A stretch of DNA of 64,000 nucleotides from Gemmatimonadota bacterium (GCA_022827345.1 JAJDTB010000015.1:89237-153236), one strand, 5' to 3'; positions 16,775 through 48,031 are shown, numbered from the stretch's first letter. Notes: generated from the sequence alone by a model not told the origin. A program made the numbers and translations.

Positions 16775-16813
16775 TGTAAAGAGTACATTACATATTGTCA
16801 TGTTGTCTTTACA
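16775..16813. promoter_or_regulatory. AT-rich 39-bp palindrome, copy A, overlapping a promoter-like element facing tdh
   Basis: Sequence is TGTAAAGAGTACATTACATATTGTCATGTTGTCTTTACA. Outer arms TGTAAAGA and TCTTTACA are perfect inverted repeats. On the minus strand, ATGACA (16796-16801), a 17-nt spacer and TACAAT (16773-16778) form a near-consensus sigma-70 promoter about 80 nt upstream of tdh. Confidence 0.6.
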
Positions 16814-16947
16814 TACCTCGCACGGGTGGAAAACCACGGCTAGCGGTCGCAGGCAGGAAACAAGATGCCCGGAAACGGGCCGGGGGCAAGGTGCGGCCGC
16901 GCACCACCCGTCCGAACCGCCCGGGTCCTGCCGTCAGCCGCTACCCG

Positions 16948-17436
16948 TCAGCGCGTGCGGTCGCGGTCGCGCGATCCTCCCCTGCGCCGGAAGCGCTCCC
17001 GGTCCTCACGCAGGAATCGACGATAGGCGTCTCGCTGCTCCGGGGTCAGGATGCGCTCGATCTCGGCGTTGATGGAGTCCATCTGACTGCGCAGCCTGGG
17101 AAGCACCTCGTTCATGGCTTCCTGGGAGGCGATGCGCCGCCGCTCGAACGCTTCCTCGATCTGGGTGCGCTGCTCGTCGCTGAGCTCGAGGACGCGGGCC
17201 ATGCGGTCCGTCACGCGGGTGCGCGCCAGTTCCATGAACGGCGATCCTCCGCGCGGCACGTCCCCGGGCCGGGCCGACGGACGGGACGGGCGCTCCCCCT
17301 GCCAGACGGCCCGCCGCTCCCAATTCCCGCCGGGCCCGCCCCGGTGGTCCACGACGCGGAGCACCGCCAGGGTGGTTGCGGCTCCCGCGAAGAACACGGC
17401 GGCGAGCAGGGCGATGGCGGACGACTTGCGACTCAT
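16948..17436 (-). CDS. periplasmic Spy/CpxP-family (LTxxQ-motif) protein
   Basis: Signal peptide MSRKSSAIALLAAVFFAGAATTLA. The LSDEQRTQIEEAF and LTPEQRDAYRRF motifs are present. The start shares an ATGA overlap with the upstream gene. Confidence 0.7.
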   Translation of the reverse strand: MSRKSSAIALLAAVFFAGAATTLAVLRVVDHRGGPGGNWERRAVWQGERPSRPSARPGDVPRGGSPFMELARTRVTDRMARVLELSDEQRTQIEEAFERRRIASQEAMNEVLPRLRSQMDSINAEIERILTPEQRDAYRRFLREDRERFRRRGGSRDRDRTR

Positions 17437-17906
17437 GGTGCGTACTCCTCCTCCGCGGCGATGACCAGCTCTTCGACGGTGGGCGCGTAGCTCCCGTCCA
17501 CCCACCCGGCGACGGACCAGGGCATCATCGCCTCGGCGAACATCGTCTCGACGGGGGTGGCCTCCTCGGCGGGAAGCAGCAGCAGGACCGCGACCGCGGC
17601 GGCAGCAAGGCCGGCGACGCCGCTGAGCACCGGCCTGCGCCAGCCCGCGAGGGTCCCGGCGAGGCTCCGATACCGCCGGGCCTCCAGTACGGGTTCGGCA
17701 CGCTCGTTGATCCGGGCCACCAACGCTTCCCAGCGCCCGGGACTGATCACCGGGTCGAGCGCGAACACGTCGCGCTGGGTATGTGGGCGGTCACCCTCGG
17801 CCTGTGGGCGGTCGCGCTCGGCCTTCGGGCGATCACGCCCGGCGCGCGCGCGCGGTCTCTCTCCGCTGTGGTCCTGGCCGTCCCGGCCGTTTGGCAGATC
17901 TGTCAT
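17433..17906 (-). CDS. putative anti-sigma factor (single-pass membrane protein)
   Basis: Lies directly after the ECF sigma gene. Has one TM segment (VLSGVAGLAAAAVAVLLLL) and an R/D/P-rich repeat (RDRPKAERDRPQAEGDRP). I saw no zinc-binding anti-sigma motif. Confidence 0.5.
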   Translation of the reverse strand: MTDLPNGRDGQDHSGERPRARAGRDRPKAERDRPQAEGDRPHTQRDVFALDPVISPGRWEALVARINERAEPVLEARRYRSLAGTLAGWRRPVLSGVAGLAAAAVAVLLLLPAEEATPVETMFAEAMMPWSVAGWVDGSYAPTVEELVIAAEEEYAP

Positions 17907-17908
17907 TC

Positions 17909-18469
17909 TCAAAGGCTCCCAAGAGCAAGGGTGCTCGAAAGGCGTTTTCGCATCGCCTTTCTGGCGACATGAAGGTGAACGCGCGACGAACCGGCCGAAA
18001 TCCCGAGTTCTCGGGCGATTTCGCCGTGTTTCCACCCCTCGAGATCGTACAGAACGAGCACTCTCCTCTGCAGATCGGTGAGGTGTTCCATCGCGTCGCT
18101 GAGGCGGCTGCGCAGTTCGGCGTTCCGCGCGTCGGCGAAGGGATCGTCACGCGACGCGGCGGAGAAGGCCGTCTCGATGGGGGTCGTCGCTCTCACGCGC
18201 TGGTAATCCCTGTGATTGTGGGCGGTGTTGCGGACAATCGTCAGCAGCCAGGCGCGGAACCCGTCCGGGTTGCGGCAGTCGTCGATTCGCTCCAGCGCCT
18301 TGATGAAGGCATCCTGGCACACGTCGTCGGCATCGCCGGGGATGTCGAGTCTGGCGCGCGCCACGGCGTGCGCCGCCCGGAGGTGCCGCCGGACGAGCTG
18401 GTCGAATGCACGGCTGTCGCCCCGCCGCACGCGTGCGACGAGGATCGCGTCGGTTTCGCCGTTGTCCAT
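17909..18469 (-). CDS. ECF-type RNA polymerase sigma factor
   Basis: Region 2 is AFDQLVRRHLRAAHAVARARL...DADDVCQDAFIKAL. Region 4 is LQRRVLVLYDLEGWKHGEIARELGISAGSSRVHLHVARKAMRKRL. Confidence 0.9.
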   Translation of the reverse strand: MDNGETDAILVARVRRGDSRAFDQLVRRHLRAAHAVARARLDIPGDADDVCQDAFIKALERIDDCRNPDGFRAWLLTIVRNTAHNHRDYQRVRATTPIETAFSAASRDDPFADARNAELRSRLSDAMEHLTDLQRRVLVLYDLEGWKHGEIARELGISAGSSRVHLHVARKAMRKRLSSTLALGSL

Positions 18470-18500
18470 ATGCGAAGAGACAGCCGAAGGAACGGTTGTG

Positions 18501-19888: not shown

Positions 19889-20135
19889 GGTTCGAATCCG
19901 CTCTCGTGCAAGGGGTGGATGGGTTGGGCGTCCAAGGAAGATAGGGCCACGTGGCGGACCTCGCGCGGCGCGCCCGAAAGGGATGAGCCGCTCCCGCGGA
20001 GCCGGGCCGACGGGCGCGGGCATGTCTGGATGGGACCATTTGGCTGTCCCTGCCCGGATGCTCCGGTTTAGCTTTCGAGGCCGATTGCGGGCACCGGGGG
20101 CCGGCGGGTCGGCCTCACCCTTCACCCACGACCGA

Positions 20136-21211: not shown

Positions 21212-21291
21212 CAGGCAGCCCGCGGACAAACCCTCCCGGCATTCGAACGGCGATGCATCCGGGCTGGCCGCTTCGCTCAGACTGTTCACAC

Positions 21292-21330
21292 TGTAATGTT
21301 GACGTTACAATTTGCCATGTGCAGTGTACA
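21292..21330. promoter_or_regulatory. AT-rich 39-bp palindrome, copy B (most diverged), with a promoter-like element facing the NUDIX gene
   Basis: Sequence is TGTAATGTTGACGTTACAATTTGCCATGTGCAGTGTACA. ACACTG (21287-21292) and CAGTGT (21322-21327) form an extra inverted pair. On the plus strand: GTTACA (21304-21309), 17-nt spacer, TACATT (21327-21332). Confidence 0.5.
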
Positions 21331-21469
21331 TTTTCGTTTTCCAGGGCTTCGCTCTACGTTGCTCCTCGGGCGAATAGCGCTGCTATTCACCTCTCGTCGC
21401 GCCTTGCCAGCCCGGCGCCTCGCCGCTCTCGGTGCTCGCGCGGGTCTATCCACGGACTGCTGAAAGCGC

Positions 21470-22141: not shown

Positions 22142-22188
22142 CGCGCGGCGGGCGGCCGAAAGGGCGAGCGTGGCGCGGGAGCGCGGGG

Positions 22189-23349: not shown

Positions 23350-25829
<2,480 letters not shown>

Positions 25830-25850
25830 CTGGGCTACCGGAATTCCGAA

Positions 25851-25889
25851 TGTAAAGACAACATGACATTATGTAATGTTGCCATGACA
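25851..25889. promoter_or_regulatory. AT-rich 39-bp palindrome, copy C, overlapping a promoter-like element 20 nt upstream of gyrA
   Basis: Sequence is TGTAAAGACAACATGACATTATGTAATGTTGCCATGACA. Bases 25850-25879 match the reverse complement of 16785-16814 at 29 of 30 positions. On the minus strand: ATTACA (25872-25877), 17-nt spacer, TACATT (25849-25854). Confidence 0.6.
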
Positions 25890-25976
25890 TAGCGCAGATT
25901 CAAGCGCGACCGGCCCGCGTGCCAGGAGCCCGGAGGCAGCGCCGCGCGGATGCCGGGGGATTTTGTCCACGGGCTC

Positions 25977-35712: not shown

Positions 35713-35714
35713 AA

Positions 35715-35733
35715 TGTAAAGACGACAGAAGTC
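35715..35733. repeat. truncated copy (D) of the AT-rich palindrome, abutting the island junction
   Basis: TGTAAAGACGACAG matches the left arm of copies A and C. Similarity is lost after about 35728, and integrase-flank homology begins at 35738. Confidence 0.5.
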
Positions 35734-35737
35734 CCCA

Positions 35738-35885
35738 ATTCGTGATCCTGTTGTGAGCGTGTTACTTACGGGATTCCAAGGTCCGATTCCCGCTGATCGG
35801 ATCAGACGCCTCCCTTGCGGGGACGGCTGTCCAGAGCCGTCCTAAGCTGTACTTCGTCGGTGTGCTGGTAACGCAGACTGCCAAC
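35738..35885 (-). pseudogene. 3' remnant of a tyrosine integrase plus its downstream flank (copy L)
   Basis: Reverse-strand translation of 35802-35882 gives GSLRYQHTDEVQLRTALDSRPRKGGV*. The intact integrase ends VLRCYQRADEGQLREALESRRRVQV*. The flank blocks CGTGTTACTTACGGG (35758-35772) and GATTCCCGCTGATCGG (35785-35800) are exact reverse complements of 42566-42580 and 42524-42539. Confidence 0.7.
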
Positions 35886-36188
35886 GCGCCGAATCAAGGC
35901 AAGAAATCACGTAAGTTCAATCAGGGCTGCACGATCTGCCACTCTTGCCATTGGGTTGCATCCGGTCGGATCGGGTCGCGAAAGCGGGAAAACCGGGATT
36001 GATTTGCGGGAATCGCGGGCGTCCTCATGTCCTTCTCAATCGGGCGATTGGCCATGTTCGCATTCGCGTGGCGATGGCGGGGAGGCATACCCATCTACGC
36101 CTTGATCGAGGGTAACGATCTGTAAGCAGTTGGGGCCAGCTGCCCTTTCCGCATCCTGTCAACCGGGAACGCCCGTCCCAGGCCACGA

Positions 36189-39100
36189 TCAGCCGTTCCG
36201 GACGAGGGCGGCCACTTTCTGCACCGTCTCGATGATCGCGCCACGCCCGCCGCCCCAGCAGAAGCGCCATGGCCGGTCATTCGGCCAGAGTTGGCGAACG
36301 TGGCGGCCGAAGTTGGTGCGAACGAAGCGAAGGATGACCAGCCCGTGATGGTCGGCCGCGTGCCGTTCGAGTTCGGGCAGGGCGCGACGCCAGTTGCTCC
36401 CCCATCCGGTCTGGACGAAGGTGGTGTGGATATGCGGATCGCGCTCGCGCAGTGCCTCGCGGACCGGTGCTTCCAGTTTGGCCGCCTCCTCGGCCCCCCC
36501 GGCGACCAGAATTCTGACATGTCTCCGCCGGGTCGGCGGCCCGCCCGCAGCGTCGGCACCCACTGCTCTTGCACCGCCCAACTGTTGGGCGAGAGCCCGG
36601 TGCCTGTCGCGCATCTCCCGGTAGAAAGAGGCGTCGATGCCGTACCCCGAGATCCGTGCCAGAATGCCGGCGGCGTCATGGAGACCGTCTTCGGTATCCT
36701 CTGAGGCTTTTCGGTGGAACAGCTCTCTCAGAATCCCGGTTGCGGCCTCGAACTCCCCGAGCGCCTCGTGGCTTCGGGCGCGCGCGATGGCAGAGTCCTC
36801 GCGGCTCCAAGCCGGATCGTAACCCGCCGGGTCGTTCAGGAGTTTCTGAAACTCCGGGACCGCCACGCCCTTCAGGGCGAGGCGTTCGAGTTCGTCCAGA
36901 GCGTCTCCGGCCCGTTCGTGCGACCGTGCATGCATGTGACCCCGGACGGCGGCCCGAAGATCGGCGGCCTTGAGATCGGCGGGCCTGCCGCTGTCGCTCG
37001 CCCGCGAATGGAGCTTTTCGGCAAGGAGCGGGCAGTGCCGGAGAGCCGGGCCGCACTCGGCGAGTGCGTCCAGCACGAGTCCGTCGGCAGCTTCGATGAC
37101 GGCTTCGGACACGCGCCGGAGATTCTCCTTGTCGTCGGCCAAGTCGAACGCTTCGACGGTCTCCCTGACGAGGTGGATCGGAAACCGAGCACCTGACGCG
37201 AGCGCGTCGACGATGACGCGGGCGGCGTGCATGAGCTTGTCGGGCTGAAGTTGCCGTGCTTTCGCGATTGCCGCATAGAGGTTGGATCGTGGCACCAGGC
37301 TTCCGTAGGATCGGACCCGCTTCGAGAAACGCAGGTGCGCGGCTACGAGATGGCGCTCAGCCGCGTCGTCGTCGTTGCCGCGAGCGAGCGCGAGGACACC
37401 CAGACAGTAGTGCCCGTGGGCGGAGCCGTCTGTCTCTTCCCGAACCGATTGCCGGAAGTGGTCCTCACCCTTGGCGAGACGCTCGCGAACGCTCGCCACG
37501 GCGGCCTGGCCGGTAGGCAGCGCAACATCCTCGATGGCGTCGAAACCGCCCGCCATCAGGCCGAGGTCGGCGTACACCATCGCACGGGCGTTTGGATCCG
37601 GATCTGCTACCAGAAGATCCTTCAGAATCCGCTCCGCCCGCTCGTGCTCGCGGAGTGCCCGGAGACTGTGCGCGAAGCGGCGTCTGGCGTCGAGCAGGAC
37701 CCGCTGTTCCGGAGCCGAACCGGCTTCCTCCAGCTGTTCGCCGACCCGGACGAGCAGGTCGAAGATGTGGCGGGCGTGGGTGGCGTCACCTTCCCGGAGG
37801 AGGTCCGTGGCTGCGGAGAGGAGCGGGTCGAAGAGCCGGGGTTCCAAGATCAGCGCGCGGTCGGTCAGCGACCGCCCGATCTCCGCGGTCCGGCCCACCC
37901 CGTGCAAGGCATTGACGATGGCGAGAACCGCGAACGCCGAAGCTGGGCTGCTCCCGGTCACCAACTCCCTGACGAATGGGTTGTCGTCGTACTCGCGCAC
38001 GATCCGGTCCCATCGTTCGCGCGCCGCCCATGCCTTCACGGCTCCCGTCCAGTACCATTGCAGGCGGGCCGGATGCTTGACGCTCAAGGAGTCGTCCGCG
38101 CTGCGGTCGAAGAGGCCGTCCCTGTATCCGGCATGGAAGCAGGACTCATGCCGGGTGCCGTTGAGCCTGACGAACTCCTCGATCACTGCGTCGATCTCGT
38201 TCTCGCTCAGCGCCCCCCTCGTCTCCCGCGCGCTCTCGTCGAGAGCCCGCTCGATAAGCCGGTCCAGGATCGTGAGCGATCCCGGACGGGAGGACGACGT
38301 GAGATGTCGGCGGGCCGGGGCAGCTTTCCCCTCGGCTTCATCAACGGAAGCCTCCTCCATGATCCCTGTCGGGGGCGTGGAAACGTCGCTTGGGTCATCC
38401 TCGCCACGGTCTTCCCCGTCCAGCACCGCCGGCGCCTGACGTTGCGGAACGTCCGGTGCGTCGGATGTCTCGGTTGCCGTCCTCGCAGCGTTTCGCCGGG
38501 CGGCCTTCCGCGGCTCAGGACCACCTCCCGGGTCACCCAGAGCCCAACGATCTCTGAGCCATGCGCGCGACTTCTCGCCCAGAGGCGCCCCGACCCCCCA
38601 AAGGACGAGGAGGTATAGGGCCACGGCCCGGTCCCCGTACTTGTCGGCCATCTTGGCCGCGACACTCGCCAAGGCGTCCTGTGAGGCGTCGATGCTCTCG
38701 ACCGATTCGACTTCGCCGTCGTCGTGCGGTATCCCGAGTCCGTCCAGGAAGGTCGTTACCATCGGGAGGCGTGCGGGCGTTTCGACGCTGGTCAGGAGGA
38801 TGAGCTGCGTGACCATCGGATCTTGCAGTGGAACGGTGCAAGTGGTCCGGACAAGCTTGTCGAGTGGCCAACGGCGAACCGTCTGCGGACGAAAACTCAT
38901 GGCGTCGGCCACCGCCTTGCAGACCGTCTCGCGCCCGATCTCGTCGCTCTCGATGAACCACCGAACCCCCTCCTCGCGCTCGTCTCGGTTCAGCACGTTC
39001 CACAGATTCACGGCACTTGGGCGCGTCGCCCGCTTCACCAACTGCTTGAGCCGGGGGTCGGTTTCCGTGCGGGAACCCGTCCGAACCGGCGTGGCTGGAG

Positions 39101-39359
39101 CCGATTCCTCGCTTTGGGGGTCTGGAGCACCGGCGCGGCGGTTGCCAAGGATGATCTTGCCGAGCTTGGTTATGGGCATGGATAGCGCAGGGCGGGCGGA
39201 TGGAGGCGGAGCTTGCAAATCTAATGCCTCCCGACGCCGGAGAGCGGTGCCGAGACGTGCCGGAGCCTCTGACGGCGGCTCAGACGCGGTTTCCGGGCGA
39301 CGGAGGGGCGTTTCGGGCAACCTACGGGCCGTGGAATGGGCCAGGATCGACGATCTCAT
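36189..39359 (-). CDS. large orphan protein (996-1056 aa): unknown N-terminal domain, long alpha-helical/TPR-like repeat region, C-terminal Rossmann-like module reminiscent of DUF2325
   Basis: The ORF is open from 39359. The first ~60 codons (MRSSILAHSTARR...) are derived from the duplicated integrase 5' block, so MPITKLGKIILG at 39179 is an alternative start. The C-terminus is VRILVAGGAEEAAK...HIHTTF...GLVILRFVRTNFGRHV...GGGRGAIIETVQKV. I found no Walker A or other catalytic motif by eye. Confidence 0.7.
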   Translation of the reverse strand: MRSSILAHSTARRLPETPLRRPETASEPPSEAPARLGTALRRREALDLQAPPPSARPALSMPITKLGKIILGNRRAGAPDPQSEESAPATPVRTGSRTETDPRLKQLVKRATRPSAVNLWNVLNRDEREEGVRWFIESDEIGRETVCKAVADAMSFRPQTVRRWPLDKLVRTTCTVPLQDPMVTQLILLTSVETPARLPMVTTFLDGLGIPHDDGEVESVESIDASQDALASVAAKMADKYGDRAVALYLLVLWGVGAPLGEKSRAWLRDRWALGDPGGGPEPRKAARRNAARTATETSDAPDVPQRQAPAVLDGEDRGEDDPSDVSTPPTGIMEEASVDEAEGKAAPARRHLTSSSRPGSLTILDRLIERALDESARETRGALSENEIDAVIEEFVRLNGTRHESCFHAGYRDGLFDRSADDSLSVKHPARLQWYWTGAVKAWAARERWDRIVREYDDNPFVRELVTGSSPASAFAVLAIVNALHGVGRTAEIGRSLTDRALILEPRLFDPLLSAATDLLREGDATHARHIFDLLVRVGEQLEEAGSAPEQRVLLDARRRFAHSLRALREHERAERILKDLLVADPDPNARAMVYADLGLMAGGFDAIEDVALPTGQAAVASVRERLAKGEDHFRQSVREETDGSAHGHYCLGVLALARGNDDDAAERHLVAAHLRFSKRVRSYGSLVPRSNLYAAIAKARQLQPDKLMHAARVIVDALASGARFPIHLVRETVEAFDLADDKENLRRVSEAVIEAADGLVLDALAECGPALRHCPLLAEKLHSRASDSGRPADLKAADLRAAVRGHMHARSHERAGDALDELERLALKGVAVPEFQKLLNDPAGYDPAWSREDSAIARARSHEALGEFEAATGILRELFHRKASEDTEDGLHDAAGILARISGYGIDASFYREMRDRHRALAQQLGGARAVGADAAGGPPTRRRHVRILVAGGAEEAAKLEAPVREALRERDPHIHTTFVQTGWGSNWRRALPELERHAADHHGLVILRFVRTNFGRHVRQLWPNDRPWRFCWGGGRGAIIETVQKVAALVRNG

Positions 39360-39390
39360 CCTCCCGAGGGGTACGGGTAGGGTCTAAACC
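39324..39390. repeat. block X-prime: direct repeat of the sequence at the 5' end of the disrupted integrase
   Basis: CCAGGATCGACGATC (39341-39355) and CCGAGGGGTACGGG (39364-39377) recur at 43651-43665 and 43674-43687 on the same strand. Flanking positions are partly conserved. Confidence 0.7.
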
Positions 39391-40027
39391 CGGCCGCGTG
39401 GAGAGCGCCGCCGTCAAAGAGGCTCCAGAGGGTTCGCCTTCGCCCTCGCCGTCCGCGAGTTGAAGAGCTTGCCCCCGGGCGACCCGGCCACCGCTGTGGC
39501 AGGCGGCGAGCGGGAAGGGTTCGCGGGCGTCCCCCAGGCTGGCTTGTGCCACGCTACGGTGGACAAGCCAGCGGACTCCCCGTGGCCACACTTCGTGCGG
39601 CACCGCGGAGGCTAGCGGGGGGCTGTGCCCCCTCTGACCCCCCCTCAATCACCAAGGCGTGTCGCAACCGGCTGGACGCCGAACGCGCCGTCTTCCCGTG
39701 CGCGCCGCGCACCGCGAGTTCTCGAAGTCGCTCCGGGAACGCCGCCTCGGGATTTGAAACCGTGGCCGCGTCCGCCGGGCAAGGAAGGAATCGCGCCGGG
39801 CGAGGACGGTGCTCGCCAAACCGGCGGCCTCCCGCCAGCGAGGATGCACGCGGTCGATCACCGGCGCTACTTCAGGTGACGTTCGAGCCGCCCCGAACAC
39901 CAATGGTGCCCGGCGAACCGGCGACATTGACGCTGCCCGACGACTCGCCGAGTTTTCCCGATAGGGCGATTCCCCGACTCATCCGCGTCCATTCCGGCGC
40001 GCACCTGGCCTCCGAAAGGGTAACGAC

Positions 40028-40708
40028 ATGGGCAGCTCGCATGATGCCGTCATGCAGTACGTGGAAGACGAACTGAAGAAGGACCGCCGCGTCAAGAACG
40101 CGACCTTGTTCGCCGGTGCCCGGGAGATCGAGGAGTCGGTGGGGGAGCTTACGCTGCAACAGTTTCACGCCAAGTACCGTCTGCCCGCGACCCGGCGCAT
40201 CGCACCGCCGCGACAGCCCGCACGGCAACCGAAGGCGGACCGGGCGCCTGCCCCCGTGCCCGCGCCATCCGGCGACGGCGCGGCCGTCATGGAGTTCGTG
40301 GTGCGGGCGCTCGAAGCGGACCCCGGCATCTCGAACGCGGACCTGTTCGCGGCGGCCCGCAAGATCGACCCCTCCGTCGCGGAACTCTCCGCCCGGCAGT
40401 TCCATGCGAAGTATCCGCTCCAAGTGAAGGCGCGGCTGGCAAAAGCCGCAACGGCCGAGCCCGATGCGCCGCCGGAACCGGAAGCGCCACCGGCTGAGGA
40501 AACGGCCGCCGGGGATGCGCCACCGACCGAGGAAGCCGCCGCCGAGGATGGGCCACCGGCGGGGACAGGCGACCCGTCCGCCGTGCGCCGTCTGCTGTTG
40601 GATCTGGCCAAGGAACTCGCGAACGCGGGGAGTCAGGCGGAGACGATCGAGGTCGTGGCCCGGCTGGATGACTATGTGGCCGACATTATGAAGGCGGCGC
40701 GGGGCTGA
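40028..40708 (+). CDS. hypothetical protein with two tandem ~50-aa repeats and a P/E/A-rich linker
   Basis: Repeat 1 is AVMQYVEDELKKDRRVKNATLFAGAREIEESVGELTLQQFHAKYRLP. Repeat 2 is AVMEFVVRALEADPGISNADLFAAARKIDPSVAELSARQFHAKYPLQ. A PPEPEAPPAEETAAGDAPPTEEAAAEDGPPAG linker follows, then a short C-terminal helix. Confidence 0.6.
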   Translation: MGSSHDAVMQYVEDELKKDRRVKNATLFAGAREIEESVGELTLQQFHAKYRLPATRRIAPPRQPARQPKADRAPAPVPAPSGDGAAVMEFVVRALEADPGISNADLFAAARKIDPSVAELSARQFHAKYPLQVKARLAKAATAEPDAPPEPEAPPAEETAAGDAPPTEEAAAEDGPPAGTGDPSAVRRLLLDLAKELANAGSQAETIEVVARLDDYVADIMKAARG

Positions 40709-41318
40709 GTCGTCGGCAAAGCCCGCGTGGTTGGAAACCGACATCGAGGGGCGGCGCGGGGCGCGGTGGCGCGACAGTACGAAAAGACGGCACAAGGGCT
40801 ACGTTGTCCCCCTGACCGAGGAGCCCGGTTCGCCGCCCGGTGACTCTTGAGACATCGGCAGCGAGCGCGGTCCACGGTTGCCAACGCCTTCCGGCACGGA
40901 TTGCTGGTCCGGAGCGACCCCCGAGGGAGGGTGGGATGGAAGTGCACATCCCAACCCTCCCCGATGCCACGCCAGGCATCGGAATCGGGGGGTCGCTCCG
41001 GTCACGGCCTCCGGTTCCGGCGCGGCGCAGCCGCCCCGGAGGCCGTGGTGCAACCTACAGCCGGACAACGACATGCAAAGTCGCGGACGTGCACGTCCGA
41101 ATCCCGTTTTCGCGCACATGCCCCCGATTTCACATGTGCGCCTCTGGATTGGCACCGGGACCCACCTCCGAGTCCGAACAACGGACTCCATCAAGCTTCG
41201 TGAGCCACACCCCGACTGACCCCCGATCATCCGCCTGAACCGCTCCCTTCGGGGCGGGACGGACCTGCCGGAAGACCTGCCACTGGCCAGACACGCCCGC
41301 GCGAGCGAAGTTTCAAGT

Positions 41319-42518
41319 GTGCAGATCGTGCAGCCCATCGTCGAAAGGAATCGAATGATGGGACGCACGAAACGGGACCGGCGCTCGTACAGCGCCGGCG
41401 AATGGGGCCGGAACCGGGTGAGGATCTTTGCCGACCCGAAGACCGGCATCCTCCAGATCGAGTGGCGAGAGAACGGGCGAAGGCTAACCCGGTCCCTCAA
41501 GCACCGCGACTGGCGGCGCGCGAAGCGGCAGGCCGACAAGTTTGCCGCAGGGTTCGCCGGGCCGGTATTGAACGGCAAGCAGGAAGCCGAGCCCAAGCCG
41601 CTGACTCTGGGCACGCTCTTTGACATCTACGGTGAGGAGGTGACGCCCACGAAGGGCAAGGGCACGCAAGCGCGCGACCGGTACTCGACCGAGATGTTTC
41701 TCGGGTTCTTCGGACGGGACCGCGACCCGGCGACCCTCTCGCAGCGCGATTGGGACCGGTTCATCCGGGAGCGCCGCGCGGGCAGGGTCGGGGCCTCGGG
41801 CCGGCCGGTGCGCAACCGGACGATCGAATGGGATCTGACGTTCCTGATGGCCGTGCTCAACTGGGCGGCGAGGTCGAGGGACGACCAGGGCCGCCTGTTC
41901 CTCGACAGGAATCCGCTGAAGGGCCTCAGGAAGCCCACGGCGAAGAACCCCGCGAGGGTTCTGCTGACCGAGGACGAGTACAGGGCGATGCTCGGGGTTT
42001 CCCGGCAGGTCAACTGGCGATTCCACGTCGCCCTCGTGCTCGCGCACGAGACCGGTCACCGAATCGGTGCCATCCGCCAGCTTCGGTGGAGTGACATCGA
42101 CTTCGAGGGCAGGACGATCCGGTGGAGGGCCAAGCACGAGAAGACGGGCTACGAGCACGTCACGCCGATGACGGACGAGGCCGTCGCCGCCTTGGAGGAG
42201 GCGCGGCGCATGACCACCGGCACGGGAGACACTCCGGTGATGCCCGCCGGGACGGACCCTTCCCGGTGCATGGACAGTTCCTGGGCCTACCAGTTCTGGT
42301 GCAGGGCGCAGAAGCGGGCGGGCTTGGAGCCCAAGCGCGGGAGGGGCTGGCACTCGCTCAGGCGAAAGTTCGCCTCGGACCTGATGGACCTGCCCCTCAA
42401 GGTCCTGTGCCAGCTGGGCGGCTGGAAGAACGCCCACACGGTTCTGCGCTGCTATCAGAGAGCCGACGAGGGACAACTCAGGGAGGCGCTGGAGAGCCGC
42501 CGCAGGGTTCAGGTCTGA
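41319..42518 (+). CDS. tyrosine-type site-specific recombinase/integrase, intact (probable ATG start at 41355)
   Basis: C-terminal catalytic domain with LAHETGHRIGAIRQLRWSDID, GWHSLRRKFASDL, and LGGWKNAHTVLRCYQ (R...HxxR...Y). Confidence 0.9.
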   Translation: MQIVQPIVERNRMMGRTKRDRRSYSAGEWGRNRVRIFADPKTGILQIEWRENGRRLTRSLKHRDWRRAKRQADKFAAGFAGPVLNGKQEAEPKPLTLGTLFDIYGEEVTPTKGKGTQARDRYSTEMFLGFFGRDRDPATLSQRDWDRFIRERRAGRVGASGRPVRNRTIEWDLTFLMAVLNWAARSRDDQGRLFLDRNPLKGLRKPTAKNPARVLLTEDEYRAMLGVSRQVNWRFHVALVLAHETGHRIGAIRQLRWSDIDFEGRTIRWRAKHEKTGYEHVTPMTDEAVAALEEARRMTTGTGDTPVMPAGTDPSRCMDSSWAYQFWCRAQKRAGLEPKRGRGWHSLRRKFASDLMDLPLKVLCQLGGWKNAHTVLRCYQRADEGQLREALESRRRVQV

Positions 42519-42609
42519 GAATCCCGATCAGCGGGAATCAAACGGCGGGAACCGGCTCGTCGAAACCCGTAAGTAACACGGGTACAGACAGATACGAATC
42601 CGGTTCCGT

Positions 42610-43640
42610 CCGCTGGTAACACCGCAGGACGGTCTAGGCCTCCTTCCAGCCACCGAGATCGCAGAGCACCTTGAGCGGCAGACCCATGAGGTCGGTCGCA
42701 CACTTGCGCCTCAGCGAGTGCCAGCCCCTTCCGCGCTTGGGCTCCAGCCCCGCCCGCCTCTCGGCGAACTTCCACCAAGCGGCCATCCGCGGGCCGCTCA
42801 CGCATGTCGAGGGATCCCGCAACGCGGGCAAAACCGGCGCGTCCCCGGACGCGTGATTGTGCTCCCTCGCCTCCTCCAAGGCTCCGGTCGCTTCGGCGGT
42901 CACCGGCGTCCGGTGCTCGTACCCGGTCTTCTCGTGCTCGGCCCGCCAGAGGATGGTCCGCTGCTCGAAGTCGATGTCAGACCACCTCAGCTTGCGGATG
43001 GCACTGATGCGGTGACCCGTTTCGTGCGCGAGTACGAGCGCGACGCGGAAGCGCCAGCCAACCCGCCCGGACACCTTGAGCATCGCCTCGCATTCCTCGT
43101 CGGAAAGCACGACCCGGGTGGGGTTCTTCACCGTCGGCACCCCTGAGTCCCTTGAGCGGGTTGGAGTCGATGAGCAGACCGCCCCGCTCGTCCCTCGACT
43201 TGGCGGCCCAGTTGAGGATCGCGAGCAGGATCCTCAGGTCGTAGCCCACGGTGCGGTCGGACGCGGGCTTGCCGCTCGGTCCGATCCTGCCCGCGCGCCG
43301 CTCCCGGATGAACCGGTCCCAGTCGCGCTGGGAAAGCGTCAGGGGACTGCGGTTCGGCCCGAAGATCGGAGAAACACTCTCATCGCGGCCCGGTCGGACC
43401 TCTGAGTCGTCTCCGCCTTGGTGGGCGTCACCTCTTCGCCGTAGATGTCAAAGAGCTTCTCCAGGGTGAGCGGCTCGGGCTCGGCTTCCGCCTTGCGCAG
43501 CGAATTCGTCCGCCTGCCGCTTCGCCCTCACCCAATCGCGGTGACCCAGCGATCGGGTGCGCCTGCGCCCGTTCTCTCGCCACTCCATCTGGTAAAGGCC
43601 GGTCTTGGCGTCGGGAAACACCCTCACGCGGTTCCGGGCT
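42610..43640 (-). pseudogene. disrupted paralogue of the integrase, tail-to-tail with the intact copy
   Basis: Homology to the intact integrase runs through three reading frames: ARNRVRVFPDAKTGLYQMEWRENGRR, then KAEAEPEPLTLEKLFDIYGEEVTPTK, then LSQRDWDRFIRERRAG...LNWAAKSRDERGGLLIDSNPLKGL, then PTVKNPTRVVLSDEECEAML...GWHSLRRKCATDL...LGGWKEA. An in-frame TAG at 42634-42636 precedes TVLRCYQR, and the native C-terminus is missing. Confidence 0.85.
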
Positions 43641-43878
43641 CTGGGATCGCCCAGGATCGACGATCGCCGACCTCCGAGGGGTACGGGGTCGGGTGAGAAT
43701 CGCCTTCGAGCACAGCCTCGACGAGGAACCGGGGGATCCCGAAGCGAACCGCGATGGCTGCCGGATCCTCGCCCCGGGCCGTCCGCTCACGGATATCGCA
43801 GGTGAGGCATACGGCTTCCCCCCGGGGACGGCCCACGTCGCAGGACCCACACCGCCGTTCCCCTGCTGACGGGGCCAC
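43624..43878 (-). CDS. putative small zinc-ribbon/HTH-like protein (possible excisionase or regulator)
   Basis: GTG start. Contains CGSCDV...CLTCDI followed by GEDPAAIAVRFGIPRFLVEAVLE. Its 3' end lies in repeat block X. Weak call. Confidence 0.3.
   Translation of the reverse strand: MAPSAGERRCGSCDVGRPRGEAVCLTCDIRERTARGEDPAAIAVRFGIPRFLVEAVLEGDSHPTPYPSEVGDRRSWAIPEPGTA
43634..43700. repeat. block X: direct-repeat partner of 39324-39390
   Basis: See block X-prime. The two copies are 4,310 bp apart on the same strand. Confidence 0.7.
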
Positions 43879-43907
43879 GACAGCGGCGGCAGCCGCCGAT
43901 CCGCCAT

Positions 43908-44102
43908 CTAGCTCGCTGGAGGCCGGGGCACTTGGAGGTCCTTGCAGATCTTTCTGGTGAGGTCCCGGTTGATCTCGTTGTGCCGGGGAATCGTCGAGAC
44001 CCTCTTGGCCGCCCGGTTGATGTAGAGGGTGTGGTTCGCGCCTTCGCGCAGAAAGGCGCATCCGTGGTATGCCAAGTGCCGCAGCAGGTCTCGGCGCTTC
44101 AC
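43908..44102 (-). CDS. hicA: HicA-family mRNA interferase toxin
   Basis: (M)KRRDLLRHLAYHGCAFLREGANHTLYINRAAKRVSTIPRHNEINRDLTRKICKDLQV is typical of HicA/YcfA. The GTG start shares a GTGA overlap with the hicB stop. Confidence 0.85.
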   Translation of the reverse strand: MKRRDLLRHLAYHGCAFLREGANHTLYINRAAKRVSTIPRHNEINRDLTRKICKDLQVPRPPAS

Positions 44103-44305
44103 GCCGTGACAGTGATGGGCTCTCTGATGACCGCACCGCCGTCGGCGTCTTCGCGGGCCATTTCCCGGTTGGCTTCGATCACCATGGCGACGGCTTCCCG
44201 CAGATTCGACCGAGCTTCTTCGAGGGAAGCGCCCTGGGTGTTGGCACCGGGAAACTCCTCGATGAAGGCGATGTAGCCTTCAGGGACTTTCCGGAACACC
44301 GCCAT
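44099..44305 (-). CDS. hicB: HicB-family antitoxin (short form)
   Basis: MAVFRKVPEGYIAFIEEFPGANTQGASLEEARSNLREAVAMVIEANRE shows the HicB N-terminal RNase-H-like fold pattern. Confidence 0.75.
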   Translation of the reverse strand: MAVFRKVPEGYIAFIEEFPGANTQGASLEEARSNLREAVAMVIEANREMAREDADGGAVIREPITVTA

Positions 44306-44571
44306 GCATTGCAGGTCCACCACTGAACTCCTTGTGACGCCGATGGATGCATTCACGCTAGCGGTCACCCGGCGCTAGCGCCATCCTCCGCCCGGGCGGT
44401 TCGGACGTCTCAACCTCGGCGGACACCGCCGCCAGCGGCTTGTCAAAAAGACCCCCGCCGGTAATCGCGGGGGGCCGCAGCGACGGCAACGGAACCGCGT
44501 GTGCCTATTGGCAGGCGAGAGCCGGTATGGAATCGGCTGCCGCCGGACGGCTTCGTGATCCCTGCCCAGCG

Positions 44572-45801
44572 TCACCTTAACGGGCTGCTCATTACCTCAT
44601 ATACCTCCACGAACTCCACGCCCAGTTCGTCCCGCCTCAGCACGGCGATCCTCCCGTGCGCCACATCCAATAGCTCGTGCGGCTGGCCCGTCACAGCGAC
44701 CGTATCCTCAATCCAGATAGGCCGAAGCACCGGGAGGCTGAGCTTCCCGACCGGCGTCCCGTTCGCGTCGAGAATCGTCCAGCGCCGCATCTCGTCGGCC
44801 AGCTTCGGGTAGTCGCCGATCCAGATCCCCCCATCGGGGTCGACGCTGATCGCACCATAGGCCGGATAGGTGTCCCGCACCGTCGACTGCTCCAGCCGCC
44901 GGCGCCAGTTCGCGTGAACTTCCTCGGGGAGAATCGCCAGGAAGGTCTCGGTCCACTCTTCCTTCTCCGCTGCCGTGACCACCCGCGGCGAGTACCCGCC
45001 GCGAATCCGGGTGACGGGGGCGGCTCCCCGGTAGAGTGTGAGGTTCAGCGAATCGTTCGTGCCGACGAGCGCGTGTTCTCCTCGTCCGGTAAAGAGCGCG
45101 GTGAGGCCGAACCCGACGGGGTTCCAGTCGTCGCCGACGTGGCGCTCCTTGCCCGCCCACTGGCCGAGCGTATCGACGATCTCGCCAGCGTCGTTCGCGA
45201 GCACGAGGAAAACCGGACCCCGCTGGATTCCCGGGGGTAGGGTCGGCCGCGTCTCCAGTGCCGCGAGCACCTCTCCGCTCCCCAGCCGACTCAGCGGGAC
45301 CGCCGCCCCGAGTCCCGCCCCCTGCTCCAAGCGGATGATGTCGGTCACCGTTCCCTGCGAGTCCAGAAAGGTCAGTCGGCGCTGACGCCAATCAAAGACG
45401 AACGGCGCGCCATCCGGGCCGACCGCGACTCGCTTGATATCCAAGTACTCCCCTGGCCCCTCGCCTTCCCGACCCGAACGCGCGCGAACCGTCCCGTCCG
45501 GTTCAAGGAAGGTGAGTTCGAACAGCCGACTGTCGGCGATGACCAGCGACGAATCCGGCAGAAACGCAGCCGCTATGACCGCCTCGAAGAAGAGATCGGC
45601 AATCGTGGTGGTGGTATGAAGGAGTCGCAGCTCCACCTCAGGCAGGTCGAGCATGTGGACATCCGAAACCCGGACGATCTCCACGCCCGCAGAATCGGCA
45701 GTCGTGATGCAGCCCCTGCTTGCCGTCTCGGTTGACTGACTCTCGCATGCCATGGTGGTGGAGAGTGCGGCGAAGATGAGAAAGCGCGAAGTCTGTGACA
45801 T
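44572..45801 (-). CDS. 6-bladed beta-propeller-type lipoprotein
   Basis: Lipobox AALSTTMAC. Repeated D/G-rich strand patterns and IWIGDY. Family call is tentative. Confidence 0.55.
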   Translation of the reverse strand: MSQTSRFLIFAALSTTMACESQSTETASRGCITTADSAGVEIVRVSDVHMLDLPEVELRLLHTTTTIADLFFEAVIAAAFLPDSSLVIADSRLFELTFLEPDGTVRARSGREGEGPGEYLDIKRVAVGPDGAPFVFDWRQRRLTFLDSQGTVTDIIRLEQGAGLGAAVPLSRLGSGEVLAALETRPTLPPGIQRGPVFLVLANDAGEIVDTLGQWAGKERHVGDDWNPVGFGLTALFTGRGEHALVGTNDSLNLTLYRGAAPVTRIRGGYSPRVVTAAEKEEWTETFLAILPEEVHANWRRRLEQSTVRDTYPAYGAISVDPDGGIWIGDYPKLADEMRRWTILDANGTPVGKLSLPVLRPIWIEDTVAVTGQPHELLDVAHGRIAVLRRDELGVEFVEVYEVMSSPLR

Positions 45802-46012
45802 TCTCTGGTCCTTCCGACGGCGGTGGTCCCGCAGGTTCCACCAAGAACGCTACGAGACCTTGAGTAGCTTCTACAATCGAAAACAGGTACGGGTGAAGCA
45901 GTGCAAATGTTCGTTGGGGCCGACGAGGAAGTGGCAATGCCGGTCATTGATTCCCCCGAAAACCGCGCTCACGCGTTACTAGCTCGACGGCACCCCAGGC
46001 GGTGTTCGTTTG

Positions 46013-47698
46013 TCAGCGACTCAACTCCGCGAGCTTCGCCCTCGCCAGTTGCGCTGGCTCGTAGTCCTCATCGGCGTTCTCCCACACGGTAAGCGCGCTC
46101 GTCAGGTTCTCCACCGCCCCCCCGATGTCCCCCCGTGTCTCCATCAGAAACGCCATCTCCAGGTGCGCGTGCGGATCGGCCGGAACCAAACGAAACGCCT
46201 CCCGCAGCTCGGCTTCCGCTTCGTCGAGGAAGCCCGCGCGGCGCAGCGCGCGACCCGCTCCACGGTAGTACCTACCCTCCGGCGATAGGGCGATAGCTGC
46301 CCTGAAGCTCTCCGCCGCCCCTGCGTAGTCCTCCGCGCGGTCGCGGATTAGCCCCAGGTCCCCCAAGAGGGTTGCCCTGATGAGTCCCCGAACATCCCCA
46401 GCCTCCACTGCGTCCGACGCTTGCCGGTGCGCATCGAGAGCGGCTGCCACGCCCTGCGCCGCAAGAGCGACGTGAACGGTCGCGCTTGCGACGTAGGTAG
46501 ACAACGGTGTCTGGAGCCCTGCCCGCACTTCCTCCAGGAGGGTGACCGCCTCGTCGACACGACCCGCGTCAAGATATACGAGGATGTCGCCGACGCGCCC
46601 GAGAGCCATGGCGCGCGGCGTCTCGAAGCCTGACTCCTCCTGCACCCTTGCCTCAATCGCGTGGATCGCATCTGCCATCTCCCCACGCCGGTGGTGATAA
46701 CGAGTAAGCCACGACAGCGCCCGGGCCCGCTGCGCTCGAGTGCTGGCTTGTGCCAACAAACGGTCGTACCCGGCACGGGCTTCCTCCAATCGCCCGACAT
46801 CCAGATCGAGGTCCGCGAGCAACCTCGCAGGTCCCTGTGACAGAGGTTCCAAGGCGATGGCCCGCTCCAGCGCTTCGCGCGCGTCTTCGTGCTGGCCGCG
46901 CCGCCGGTGGAAGTCCGCCAGCGAGTAGTATCCGGATACGTCTCCGGGGAACCGCTCTACATGCTCGGTCCACAGGGACAAAGCCTCGGCATAGTTGCCC
47001 AGACTCTCGTGTGCTCGGGCCATAGACAGGATTGGTCGGCCGTCGAGGGGATCGAGGCGGCGGATCTCGGTTAGGGTCGCCAGCACATCCTCCCATTCAC
47101 CGTTCGCCAGCTGCATCCCGGCCAGAATGTTCAACGCGTTCAAGTCGTTGGGATACAGTCCGACCCACATGTCCACTACGGTCGCCACTTTGTCCGTCTC
47201 CCCAGTCTCCACGTAGTACTCCGCCCTGATCTGGAAGCCGTAGCGCTCGGGCACTCGGTAGAGGTTCTCCATGGCCGCCACCAGCGGTGCCATGGCGACG
47301 ACCGCACCCTCCGCCGATTGTCGCAACACGAGGTGCAAGGCGTATTGTGCGATGGTGAAGCTGGGATCGAGGGTTGTGGCGGTGGTCAGGTATTCTATGG
47401 CCCCCTCGACATCTCGGTGGACGCGGTCGAGGAAAACCCCCTTGAAGAAAGCCTCCACTGCGGCGGCGTTCTCGGAGAGCCGTGAGTGTAAAGGCAAGTC
47501 CTCGACGCCTTCGCGGACAGGGATCTCCAGGGCTCTCTTCACGGGTCCCGACATCTCATCGACAAGTGCGAGCAGGTCGGTCCCTTCGTGGAAGGTCTCC
47601 CCCGCGAGCGATCCGTTACCCGCTCTGTACACCCTGAGGTCGCGTGGCAAGCTCGCCAATGACGGCTGGGAAGCGGGAGGACTTTCCGGCGTGTCCAT
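46013..47698 (-). CDS. tetratricopeptide (TPR) repeat protein
   Basis: Multiple 34-aa A/L/Y/G-patterned repeats, for example NYAEALSLWTEHVERFPGDVSGYYSLADFHRRRGQHEDAREALERAIALEP. Confidence 0.8.
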   Translation of the reverse strand: MDTPESPPASQPSLASLPRDLRVYRAGNGSLAGETFHEGTDLLALVDEMSGPVKRALEIPVREGVEDLPLHSRLSENAAAVEAFFKGVFLDRVHRDVEGAIEYLTTATTLDPSFTIAQYALHLVLRQSAEGAVVAMAPLVAAMENLYRVPERYGFQIRAEYYVETGETDKVATVVDMWVGLYPNDLNALNILAGMQLANGEWEDVLATLTEIRRLDPLDGRPILSMARAHESLGNYAEALSLWTEHVERFPGDVSGYYSLADFHRRRGQHEDAREALERAIALEPLSQGPARLLADLDLDVGRLEEARAGYDRLLAQASTRAQRARALSWLTRYHHRRGEMADAIHAIEARVQEESGFETPRAMALGRVGDILVYLDAGRVDEAVTLLEEVRAGLQTPLSTYVASATVHVALAAQGVAAALDAHRQASDAVEAGDVRGLIRATLLGDLGLIRDRAEDYAGAAESFRAAIALSPEGRYYRGAGRALRRAGFLDEAEAELREAFRLVPADPHAHLEMAFLMETRGDIGGAVENLTSALTVWENADEDYEPAQLARAKLAELSR

Positions 47699-47992
47699 CC
47701 GAACAGTCTAGGTCCGCTACAGGACCGTGGCAAACCGCAGTCGTGTCCAGTCGAGAGACCGGGGCGGAGGCACACTTTTGTTGAACAGGCTGATTGAAGG
47801 TGAGCCCCGGACATCCCTTGAGTCCGCTCAAGAAGGCGGTCCGAACGGCTTTGGGAGTCCCGCTATTCCGGTCCGTTTTTCCCGCTTTCGCGTTACGGTC
47901 CAGCAGGGTCCAGCCCAACGGCAGGAAACGCAGATCGTGCAGCCCTGTAAGTAGTTAGACGGGTTCCTGCCGCGATTTCGACCCTTGCCATG

Positions 47993-48031
47993 CTGCAACA
48001 ACGACATTACATTATGTAATGTTCTCTATAC
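47993..48031. promoter_or_regulatory. AT-rich 39-bp palindrome, copy E, with a perfect 19-bp core palindrome
   Basis: Sequence is TGCAACAACGACATTACATTATGTAATGTTCTCTATACA. The core ACATTACAT-T-ATGTAATGT (48003-48021) is perfectly palindromic. On the plus strand: ATTACA (48005-48010), 17-nt spacer, TACATT (48028-48033). Confidence 0.55.

Follow-up and report, generated by a model that had tools for sequence, protein, structure and literature searches.

A 43-bp AT-rich palindromic repeat with promoter-like architecture, dispersed through intergenic DNA of Gemmatimonadota

The recurrent palindrome in the window (the whole 64-kb stretch of DNA that was analysed) is the core of a previously undescribed family of AT-rich intergenic repeats of about 43 bp in Gemmatimonadota genomes. 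Judged from sequence, the repeat is best read as a dispersed, portable two-way promoter cassette, a reading to which we assign a probability of roughly 45%. Gemmatimonadota are abundant in soils and sponges and, to our knowledge, almost nothing is known of their transcription initiation or of how their genomes are reshaped. Our literature search found no paper on the motif or on Gemmatimonadota repeats.

The 43-bp unit, ATGTAA-N8-TTACAT-N-ATGTAA-N8-TTACAT, is made up of four hexamers of the TTACAT type whose orientation alternates; half-sites of the same orientation are spaced 21 bp, or two helical turns, apart. The TACA of the arms is conserved in 97%, and the outer arms, TGTAAAG and CTTTACA, are terminal inverted repeats. 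A 43-bp position weight matrix (PWM) trained solely on non-window genomes scored copies A, C, E and B at 71, 68, 56 and 41 bits; the rest of the window stayed at or below 10 bits and none of 20 shuffles scored above 0. The core ACATTACATWATGTAATGT, with up to three mismatches, matched three times in the window and not once in 100 shuffles. The window has 67.8% GC, and every module copy in it is intergenic. The preliminary description of a recurrent AT-rich palindrome in intergenic DNA of a high-GC genome was therefore confirmed; the sequences it gave for A, B, C and E were found letter for letter, and copy C is indeed identical to the reverse complement of copy A at 29 of 30 positions. The palindrome that it described as 39 bp is real but belongs to a unit of 43 bp (e.g. 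16773-16815). Among its four full copies, A, B and C stand, whereas E is a chimera of a half module and an island end: the supposed left motif arm of E (47993-48000) belongs to an insertion of 12,273 bp, whose end it forms. The modules and associated repeats in the window are as follows.

16773..16815, no strand: module copy A, between the ECF-sigma operon terminator (hairpin 16868-16884) and tdh; PWM 71 bits
16773..16801, minus strand: promoter-like reading of copy A towards tdh-kbl, ATGACA (16801-16796), 17 nt, TACAAT (16778-16773)
16693, minus strand: ATG of tdh, downstream of the promoter-like reading of copy A
16693..16772, plus strand: relative of the left arm of the composite repeat (end repeat and hairpin); nhmmer match to copy-B unit positions 12-132, E 4.9e-5
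21214..21461, plus strand: composite repeat with copy B, 245 bp (left arm 21214-21289, module, right arm 21333-21461)
21290..21332, no strand: module copy B, decayed; PWM 41 bits
25849..25891, no strand: module copy C; PWM 68 bits; kept in L017, missing in L117
25892..25977, minus strand: left-arm homologue upstream of copy C; nhmmer E 6e-7, arm profile match
35713..35727, no strand: half-module D (AATGTAAAGACGACA), left part of the island-interrupted module, which is intact in strain L003
48001..48034, no strand: right two-thirds of the interrupted module (copy E of the preliminary description), from sequence and the L003 comparison

In a scan of public genomes the core matched 113 times. Gemmatimonadota MAGs, chiefly of Longimicrobiales, account for 95 of these matches. 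The arms beyond the searched core reached a median of 26.8 bits in the Gemmatimonadota matches, and at most 2.4 bits in 15 of the 18 others. These flanking arms are conserved there only, and the family is essentially confined to Gemmatimonadota, mainly to Longimicrobiales-type genomes, and it is common to many species of the phylum. Single chromosomes of 3-4 Mb carry at least seven dispersed strict-core copies, and there are tens of copies per genome, distributed over many intergenic spacers. This copy number, with a 6-8-6 architecture present twice, is unlike the single-copy dif site of Xer recombination, which the preliminary description likewise did not recognise in the palindrome. A phage origin was rejected, since viral contigs held only chance core matches, in AT-rich phages, and the island end was absent from them. 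A GyrA query against metagenomes led to a single locus.

As the four hexamers alternate in orientation, the module can be read as a promoter from both sides. In either direction it presents a sigma-70-type -35 (aT(T/G)ACA), 17 bp and a -10 (TACA(T/A)T), the hexamers being near TTGACA and TATAAT, with A at -11, T at -7 and a spacing within 17+/-1 bp. The hexamer/17-nt/hexamer arrangement noticed earlier is present in every copy, always with 17 nt. ATGACA-17-TACAAT in copy A matches 10 of 12 positions and, facing tdh, is the sole sigma-70-type match in 16 kb; (G/A)TTACA-17-TACATT in B, C and E matches 8 of 12. On the plus strand, copy B reads GTTACA (21304-09), 17 nt, TACATT (21327-32) towards the NUDIX gene (start 21470), and copy E reads ATTACA (48006-11), 17 nt, TACATT (48029-34), aimed into the 3' end of the PIG-L gene. 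Copy C reads ATTACA (25877-72), 17 nt, TACATT (25854-49) on the minus strand, and the gyrA ATG is at 25829, 20 nt past it. A clear Shine-Dalgarno sequence and ATG lie 28-40 nt beyond the module in at least 10 copies. Promoter-like sites outside modules in these genomes have the form TTGAC-N17-19-TAnnnT, often TACnnT, and 16 of 21 have a same-strand CDS downstream.

The two sides of the module are not equivalent. The ATACA-type arm (TATACA/CATACA), which has the better -10 likeness, faces the gene in 18 of 36 solo copies and lies on the far side in 1 of 36 (p = 7.6e-5); in convergent copies it accounts for 2 of 16 arms (p = 0.0135). The gene-facing asymmetry, the sigma-70-type geometry and the restriction to Gemmatimonadota strengthen the earlier suggestion of a lineage-specific strong-promoter module. 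Against the promoter reading, the -35 is much more often ATTACA than TTGACA, and some variants carry four TTKACA hexamers without a -10-like outer arm (L047 4181). Searching de novo for a promoter motif, by hexamer strand bias in 367 upstream regions, was uninformative, as the set consisted mostly of operon-internal regions. We infer that the module has promoter activity; RNA polymerase holoenzyme would then begin transcription some 7 nt beyond an outer arm. Landing upstream of a gene, a copy would supply that gene's promoter, as may be the case for gyrA, tdh-kbl and possibly the NUDIX gene, and would later be tuned on the gene-facing side, from TTTACA to TATACA/CATACA, while copies between convergent genes would be by-products of dispersal.

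The genomic context of the copies was evaluated with our own crude gene calls at the fetched loci; strands were called by codon phase and checked on 8 known genes. Of the 33 solo copies for which a gene could be called on either flank, 8 (24%) are located between convergent genes, much like the 22% of all gene pairs, so placement is not enriched for promoter positions. The spacer-type and stop-codon tallies come in part from a rougher GC3-based stop-to-stop caller, which misjudged strands in tight operons (e.g. kbl); by those counts many copies abut or supply stop codons. No tRNA or Rfam RNA was found near copies in the window or in 60+10 loci, and an association with tRNAs or known RNAs was thus rejected. 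The 77 neighbouring proteins cluster almost all as singletons and span 88 heterogeneous Pfam families with no more than three members each, without a coherent gene set and, among the neighbours examined, without a recurrent regulator gene. As the copies are intergenic and their neighbours unrelated housekeeping genes, consistent with the unrelated downstream genes described before, a regulon was rejected. The absence of copies A, B and C from the relative L117 is likewise not what operators of a regulon would lead one to expect.

L117 has a GyrA 89% identical to that of the window, and its spacer at the site of copy B measures 22 bp as opposed to 299 bp in the window. Copy C is kept in another relative, L017. 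The D/E site was kept as well, with 35 of 43 positions identical between L003 and L117, whose D/E loci were retrieved via gyrA and not via the motif. Filled and empty sites thus occur among relatives, in many unrelated contexts, and retention of the motif at orthologous loci is partial. Where copies are retained, they are 81-86% identical while the flanking spacers fall to 30-53%; in an orthologous trio the two arms are invariant at 9/12 and 8/12 positions, compared with 34-45% in the flanking spacer. This trio and the identity at the D/E site point to functional constraint, which favours the promoter reading. The D/E site lies between convergent genes, yet it is conserved between species, which speaks against the promoter reading, and in one-way contexts the far arm is conserved equally with the near arm, a feature that a one-way promoter alone neither explains nor needs.

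The conservation of all four half-sites at orthologous sites, far arm included, could instead reflect an array of binding sites for one lineage-specific protein (a dimer of dimers, a global regulator, a nucleoid protein or a recombinase-like protein). Such a protein would recognise all four TTACAT half-sites, which form two ATGTAA-N8-TTACAT dyads at a distance of 21 bp, and the promoter likeness would be secondary or part of a combined promoter/operator. It would account for the conserved copy between convergent genes, the two-turn spacing of same-orientation half-sites, the variants that retain four hexamers despite GC-rich spacers, the symmetric change of both inner half-sites in L053 2003 (TTTCCAT-A-ATGGAAA) and the recombination of integrase islands inside the 8-bp dyad spacer. 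However, the gene-facing asymmetry demands a direction, which a symmetric binder cannot supply, the neighbours contain neither a coherent gene set nor a recurrent regulator gene, and no candidate protein was found. We know of no operator that matches among LexA, CRP/FNR, Fur, NtcA, PadR and the pho box, and of no fit in both spacing and sequence when OmpR, LytTR, Ter and the dif XerD arm are added. We regard a binding array as possible but somewhat doubtful. For the earlier proposal of an operator array of a global regulator the outcome is mixed: the far arm is conserved like the gene-facing one, and the neighbours form no regulon.

The D/E site is interrupted by a mobile island, with the following features.

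35728..48000, no strand: inserted island, 12,273 bp; flanks ACGACA at 35722-27 and 48001-06
41319..42518, plus strand: tyrosine recombinase gene of the island, Pfam PF00589
42634-43140, minus strand: second, partial tyrosine recombinase gene, Pfam PF00589

By blastn, L003 1-105 corresponds to 48105-48001 of the window and L003 100-14419 to 35727-21408, so that L003 holds an intact module at the island site. ACGACA is identical at both junctions, and the two recombinase genes match PF00589 with E values of 9.9e-20 and 5.4e-16. A second island has integrated into a different module, in L017, and these two related integrase islands recombined within 8-bp dyad spacers. Integrase-carrying genomic islands therefore land on modules. 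The candidate island attP holds …TGCAACAACGACAGAAGTCC… and the candidate attB is ATGTMA-N8-TTACAT. Much as other elements use tRNA genes, the islands may simply take advantage of a target that is conserved and present in many copies.

Each of the copies A, B and C is linked to fragments of a larger repeat. The ends of the copy-B composite are the inverted repeats GCAGCCCGCGGACAAA ... TATCCACGGACTGC. An alignment of the 245-bp composite with sequences from 20 other genomes has a mean column identity of 79%; the ends of the composite are inverted over about 19 bp (CTAGCAGCCCGTGGACAAA / TTTATCCACGGACTGCTAG) and often flanked by TAG, which may belong to the end. A structured RNA formed by the composite is possible; its covariation term in RNAalifold is about 0. 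On the minus strand, 16693..16772 is the 5' leader of tdh, and this stretch of roughly 100 bp is missing in L117. The end repeat TAGGAGCCCGTGGACAAAATCC of the left-arm homologue next to copy C begins at the MOSC stop codon. Nesting is also seen inside a 175-nt repeat, where the module and some 15 bp to either side of it are bracketed by a duplicated GCTTCGC; the 175-nt repeat is found without the module as well, in varied spacers, with or without some 70 bp inserted internally, and the carrier of copy B folds as a long rod (-98.8 kcal/mol, z = -4.7). A tandem duplication was observed. Orthologous copies that are missing and the nested insert in the 175-nt repeat count for a copy-and-paste origin, and together with the nesting in larger repeats they favour the small mobile palindromic element of the preliminary description.

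These marks of mobility, the spacer-type distribution equal to background and the frequent contact with stop codons (both from rough gene calls) would suit a purely selfish small repeat of REP or MITE type, its promoter likeness due to chance AT-richness and its conservation to recent spread or gene conversion. Retained copies are nevertheless far more similar than their flanking spacers, their asymmetry tracks gene direction, and, in contrast to what is typical of REP or MITE families, the repeat is conserved in many species of the phylum. Among 69 solo copies searched for direct repeats of 2-8 bp, no boundary offset exceeded chance, so target-site duplications were not seen. No transposase with matching ends was seen in the fetched loci; between the paired modules of L039, where an IS-type transposase and other ORFs lie, no RAYT was obvious by eye. 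We therefore find a repeat without host function unlikely. The promoter module and the mobile element appear to describe a single entity from two sides, and of the earlier interpretation as a whole these two parts gained support.

A hairpin or cruciform element (a two-way terminator, an mRNA-stabilising stem or a REP-type hairpin) would likewise be palindromic and could follow stop codons as many copies do, and some copies fold well (L080 at -19.3 and L003 at -16 kcal/mol). The variable positions, however, do not covary: complementarity does not exceed chance, and positions 5/15, -5/25 and 9/11 are anti-correlated (z -4.7, -3.8 and -2.8). Folding energy is uneven (z = -0.4 for B and -1.2 for C), the AU-rich stems have no proper U-tract, and a terminator scan made no call on the modules. 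For lack of covariation and because of the uneven folding this explanation was rejected as very improbable.

A more speculative model, which we consider quite unlikely, combines several of these observations. The module would be the recognition site of a DNA-binding or recombinase-type protein specific to the Gemmatimonadota lineage, which would keep the half-sites conserved and copy the module without target duplications. It would then be a self-spreading promoter/operator cassette that rewires operons and is used by islands as a multi-copy attachment site.

If the promoter-cassette reading is right, the module would provide the clearest promoter consensus so far for this lineage, a case in which a 43-bp cassette has divided operons and given them new promoters (radical-SAM/NUDIX, gyrA, tdh-kbl), and a defined attachment site that integrative islands find in many copies. 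The module could serve as a compact promoter part for a high-GC phylum and as a probe for its binders.

Small intergenic inverted-repeat elements that carry sigma-70-like promoters for neighbouring genes include the Correia elements of Neisseria, MITEAba12, BrickBuilt and QMITE1; such promoter-bearing MITEs vary in presence between related genomes and insert into each other (PMC10969869). The module resembles them in being small, dispersed, intergenic, promoter-like, variably present and nested. Correia elements, however, measure about 100-200 bp, have TA duplications and an IHF site and belong to one genus, whereas the module, an AT-rich sequence of 43 bp in a genome of 68% GC, is made up of four phased half-sites, shows no target duplication in solo copies and is common to many species of a phylum. 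REP sequences are extragenic palindromes of about 40 bp, often behind stops and between convergent genes, and are insertion targets for mobile elements; the module shares with REP/BIME its length of about 40 bp, palindromic form, extragenic position, frequent placement behind stops or between convergent genes and targeting by mobile elements. REPs form GC-rich hairpins in which pairing is maintained and the GTAG head conserved, while the module is AT-rich, lacks GTAG, does not maintain pairing and had no RAYT gene in the loci examined. Variants of ERIC with internal inserts exist, and the 175-nt carrier of copy B is similarly a long imperfect palindrome in varied spacers, with or without an insert; it has no sequence relation to ERIC/IRU, comes from another phylum, and its insert is the promoter-like module itself. 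Matus-Garcia et al. reportedly described in 2012 'mobile promoters' reused upstream of unrelated genes. As in these and in back-to-back divergent sigma-70 promoters, two outward -35/-10 pairs share a centre and the same sequence stands before non-homologous genes, but the module is conserved (about 70 bits) far beyond what a promoter needs and also sits where no gene can be driven. Finally, each half-module, with inverted 6-bp arms around an 8-bp spacer, resembles the core sites of tyrosine recombinases (attB, dif, loxP type). In contrast to those sites, there are tens of modules per genome and not one, with no sign of a host recombinase acting on them; dif/Xer is a single copy near the terminus with an 11-6-11 layout, and the module occurs in many copies with a 6-8-6 layout twice.

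The four sequences reported in the preliminary description were exact in position and in letters when the window was read again, and the 29/30 identity between copy C and the reverse complement of copy A, as well as the hexamer, 17-nt spacer and hexamer pattern of each copy, were borne out. The repeat unit, the module, is 43 bp long and consists of four TTACAT-type hexamers of alternating orientation: two ATGTAA-N8-TTACAT dyads abut at one central base, and hexamers of the same orientation are 21 bp apart. The window, taken from a 251-kb metagenome scaffold (KELL22-1 scaffold_14), has a GC content of 67.8%, and the sites of A, B, C and E are among its few AT-rich islands. A 74-bp AT-rich island at 5765-5838, directly upstream of an ORF at 5882-6985 (+), and an extended low-GC stretch at the window end (62500-63235) are unrelated to the module. 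The 19-bp core with at most 3 mismatches was matched 3 times in the window and never in 100 shuffles. A 43-bp position matrix, trained solely on instances from other genomes, gave bit scores of 71 for A, 68 for C, 56 for E and 41 for B, and of 10 or less for all remaining sites of the 64 kb; no shuffle rose above 0. No tRNA or Rfam family was found near the window copies.

Module copies and integrase island in the window
16773-16815, genes all on the - strand: copy A, in the gap separating an ECF-sigma operon's terminator from the tdh-kbl start
21290-21332, both genes on the + strand: copy B, in the spacer separating a radical-SAM gene from a NUDIX gene
25849-25891, both genes on the - strand: copy C, in the spacer separating a MOSC gene from gyrA, the gyrA ATG being 20 nt past the module
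35713-35727: half-copy D
36189-39359: island, 1056-aa protein with no Pfam match
41319-42518: island, tyrosine recombinase
42634-43140: island, second, partial recombinase
44099-44374: island, HicB-like protein
46013-47698: island, TPR protein
48001-48034: copy E, 22 bp past a PIG-L gene's stop codon

When 185,579 species genomes were scanned once with ACATKACATWWTGTMATGT, at least 113 stretches matched; among the core matches listed, 95 of 113 belonged to MAGs of Gemmatimonadota, most of them from Longimicrobiales and some of them sponge-associated bins. In Gemmatimonadota the flanks beyond the searched core are strongly conserved (outer-arm TACA 97%); the resulting consensus is aATGTAAAG-nnn-ACAT(T/G)ACAT-w-ATGT(A/C)ATGT-nnn-CTTTACATT. 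The score of the arms alone has a median of 26.8 bits in this phylum and is at most 2.4 bits in 15 of the 18 listed matches from other taxa, the exceptions being an AT-rich Paenibacillus (L057), a Latescibacterota single-cell genome (L079) and a MAG labelled 'Acidobacteriota' (L075). The full-looking modules of L079 (1888-1930, in a genome of 35% GC) and L075 (7210-7273, two copies overlapping with an offset of 21 bp) could be due to binning or labelling error, or the repeat could range more widely in the FCB group. A single complete chromosome carries at least 5-7 strict-core copies, distributed chromosome-wide, and the draft MAG SB0662_bin_23 at least 10; with looser copies included there are probably some tens per genome. 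The viral contigs searched gave chance matches only, and a literature search found no paper on the motif. Most of the loci compared below were selected by exact core match, with gene models called by us.

The module family is a dispersed repeat with turnover. In the relative L117, GyrA is 89% identical and 22 kb are syntenic with the window, yet three of the four modules are absent: the B site is 22 bp long instead of 299 bp, the A site 53 bp instead of 154 bp, and the C-site spacer is unrelated sequence. The C-site module is present in another relative, L017, and that of the D/E site is 35/43 identical between L117 and a third, L003, a comparison that is unbiased because both loci were fetched through gyrA. 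Retention of the motif at orthologous loci, raised in the preliminary description, holds for D/E and fails in L117 for A, B and C. In modules upstream of orthologous genes (proteins 81-88% identical), the arms were 9/12 and 8/12 invariant and the surrounding spacer 34-45%; these loci being motif-selected, core conservation is partly a selection effect, while arm conservation is not. L117 also has an extra 1.1 kb (13645-14809) between the saccharopine dehydrogenase and NUDIX genes, missing from the window. At L021 4220, L086 1537, L100 3125 and other loci, an upstream ORF enters the module and ends at the TAA of TGTAAAG, so the repeat may have replaced the last codons or supplied the stop.

Integrase islands use the module as a landing site. 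In L003 an intact module lies between the ends of the PIG-L and CarboxypepD_reg genes, and the same ends are 12.3 kb apart in the window. The half-copy at 35713-35727 is the left arm of the interrupted module and copy E (48001-48034) the remainder; the inserted DNA (35728-48000), absent from L003, has ACGACA on either side. With the insertion resolved, the stretch first read as E's 'left arm' (TGCAACAA) is the island end, and E is not the full copy it was taken for. In L017 a related island (integrase-region DNA 74-79% identical) occupies another module, upstream of gyrA, its junction again within the 8-bp dyad spacer and beside GACA.

Among 107 copies of at least 40 bits, 71 were solo, 28 were central in a 245-bp composite repeat and 8 had one composite arm. 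The composite is common to 21 genomes in differing gene contexts (mean column identity 79%) and has end repeats of ~19 bp (CTAGCAGCCCGTGGACAAA / TTTATCCACGGACTGCTAG). Copy B is one such composite (21214-21461); A and C each adjoin a homologue of the left arm, in opposite orientations relative to the gene each precedes. A form of ~175 nt without the module (L008 1875-2051, L110 2075-2252) has a predicted long-rod fold (-98.8 kcal/mol, z = -4.7). As CGCTTCGC is single in this form and flanks both sides of the ~70-bp module-bearing insert in the composite, the module has inserted into another repeat. The 175/245-nt repeat, which may be a MITE or a small-RNA gene, is often bordered by TAG and so is commonly placed at stop codons. 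Each composite arm ends in a hairpin and T-run, terminator-like for transcripts leaving the module. Both end repeats contain TT(A/G)TCCACg (window 21447-21455, TCTATCCAC; 25962-25970; alignment consensus), an 8/9 match to the DnaA-box consensus (TTATCCACA/TTGTCCACA), which may be coincidence. At L029 5280-5680 the composite, which here precedes an alanine dehydrogenase gene, is in tandem with a 249-bp period, the second copy being truncated right after the module.

The small mobile palindromic element envisaged in the preliminary description agrees with this nesting, with the dispersal and with the turnover; against it, no target-site duplications were found flanking solo copies, and no transposase matching the module was seen in the loci examined. 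That the module is a purely selfish repeat we consider unlikely. A hairpin function, which its palindromic form would allow, is highly improbable and was rejected: at variable positions the two halves were complementary no more than by chance, three position pairs were anti-correlated (5/15, z = -4.7; -5/25, z = -3.8; 9/11, z = -2.8), predicted RNA hairpin energies were uneven, between -7.4 and -19.3 kcal/mol, with B and C folding no better than shuffles. In a typical copy one inner site is TGACA and the other TTACA, and no more than one side has a TATACA arm.

We assign a probability of about 0.45 to the module being a dispersed two-way promoter cassette, a commitment that reflects promoter evidence for and against: copies upstream of genes would have been co-opted as putative promoters and then tuned. 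Read from either side, the module gives aT(T/G)ACA, 17 bp, TACA(T/A)T; towards tdh, copy A reads ATGACA-17-TACAAT (10/12), the sole sigma-70-type site in 16 kb. In these genomes the promoter-like sites outside modules follow the pattern TTGAC-N17-19-TAnnnT (the -10 often TACnnT), with same-strand coding sequence downstream in 16 of 21, so the arm of the module agrees with the local -10. At least 10 copies have a clear Shine-Dalgarno sequence and ATG 28-40 nt past the module, and the downstream genes are ordinary and mutually unrelated (pyruvate kinase, tRNA synthetase, SecDF, ATP synthase a subunit, peptide deformylase, gyrA, tdh). The strongest evidence suggesting a promoter is directional: among solo copies for which a single downstream gene was inferred, a TATACA/CATACA arm faces the gene in 18/36 and lies on the far side in 1/36 (p = 7.6e-5); in convergent contexts 2/16 arms are of this type (p = 0.0135).

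Other features count against a promoter-only reading. Solo copies lie between convergent genes in 8/33 cases (24%, vs 22% of all neighbouring gene pairs), and one such copy has been conserved from species to species; far and near arms are equally conserved; and a few variants keep four -35-like hexamers without the -10-like arm. The lineage-specific promoter module first suggested is favoured by its Gemmatimonadota range, -35/-10 geometry and gene-facing arm, and disfavoured by the convergent copies. A protein binding all four half-sites, possibly in addition to a promoter role, is a lesser possibility. In a single instance (L053 2003-2045) the outer arms are kept and both inner half-sites altered alike (TTTCCAT-A-ATGGAAA vs TTACAT-T-ATGTAA), which hints at a dimeric reader. 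Variants with GC-rich spacers (L047 4181-4223, L020 1100-1142, L006 3076-3118, L027 4613-4655) retain four TT(T/G)ACA hexamers at unchanged spacing, as in TATGTCAT-CTCTGC-TTTACA-CAA-TGTAAA-GCGCAG-TTGACATC.

As a two-way promoter cassette, the module would work most like promoter-bearing MITEs, of which Correia elements are an example (PMC10969869), but it is far smaller, shows no target duplications around solo copies and has been conserved in many species. With REPs it shares its size, its location and a role as an insertion target, but it fails the hairpin test. A dif-like role is ruled out by the many copies per genome. Each dyad is nevertheless laid out like a recombinase core site, and the islands use it as such.
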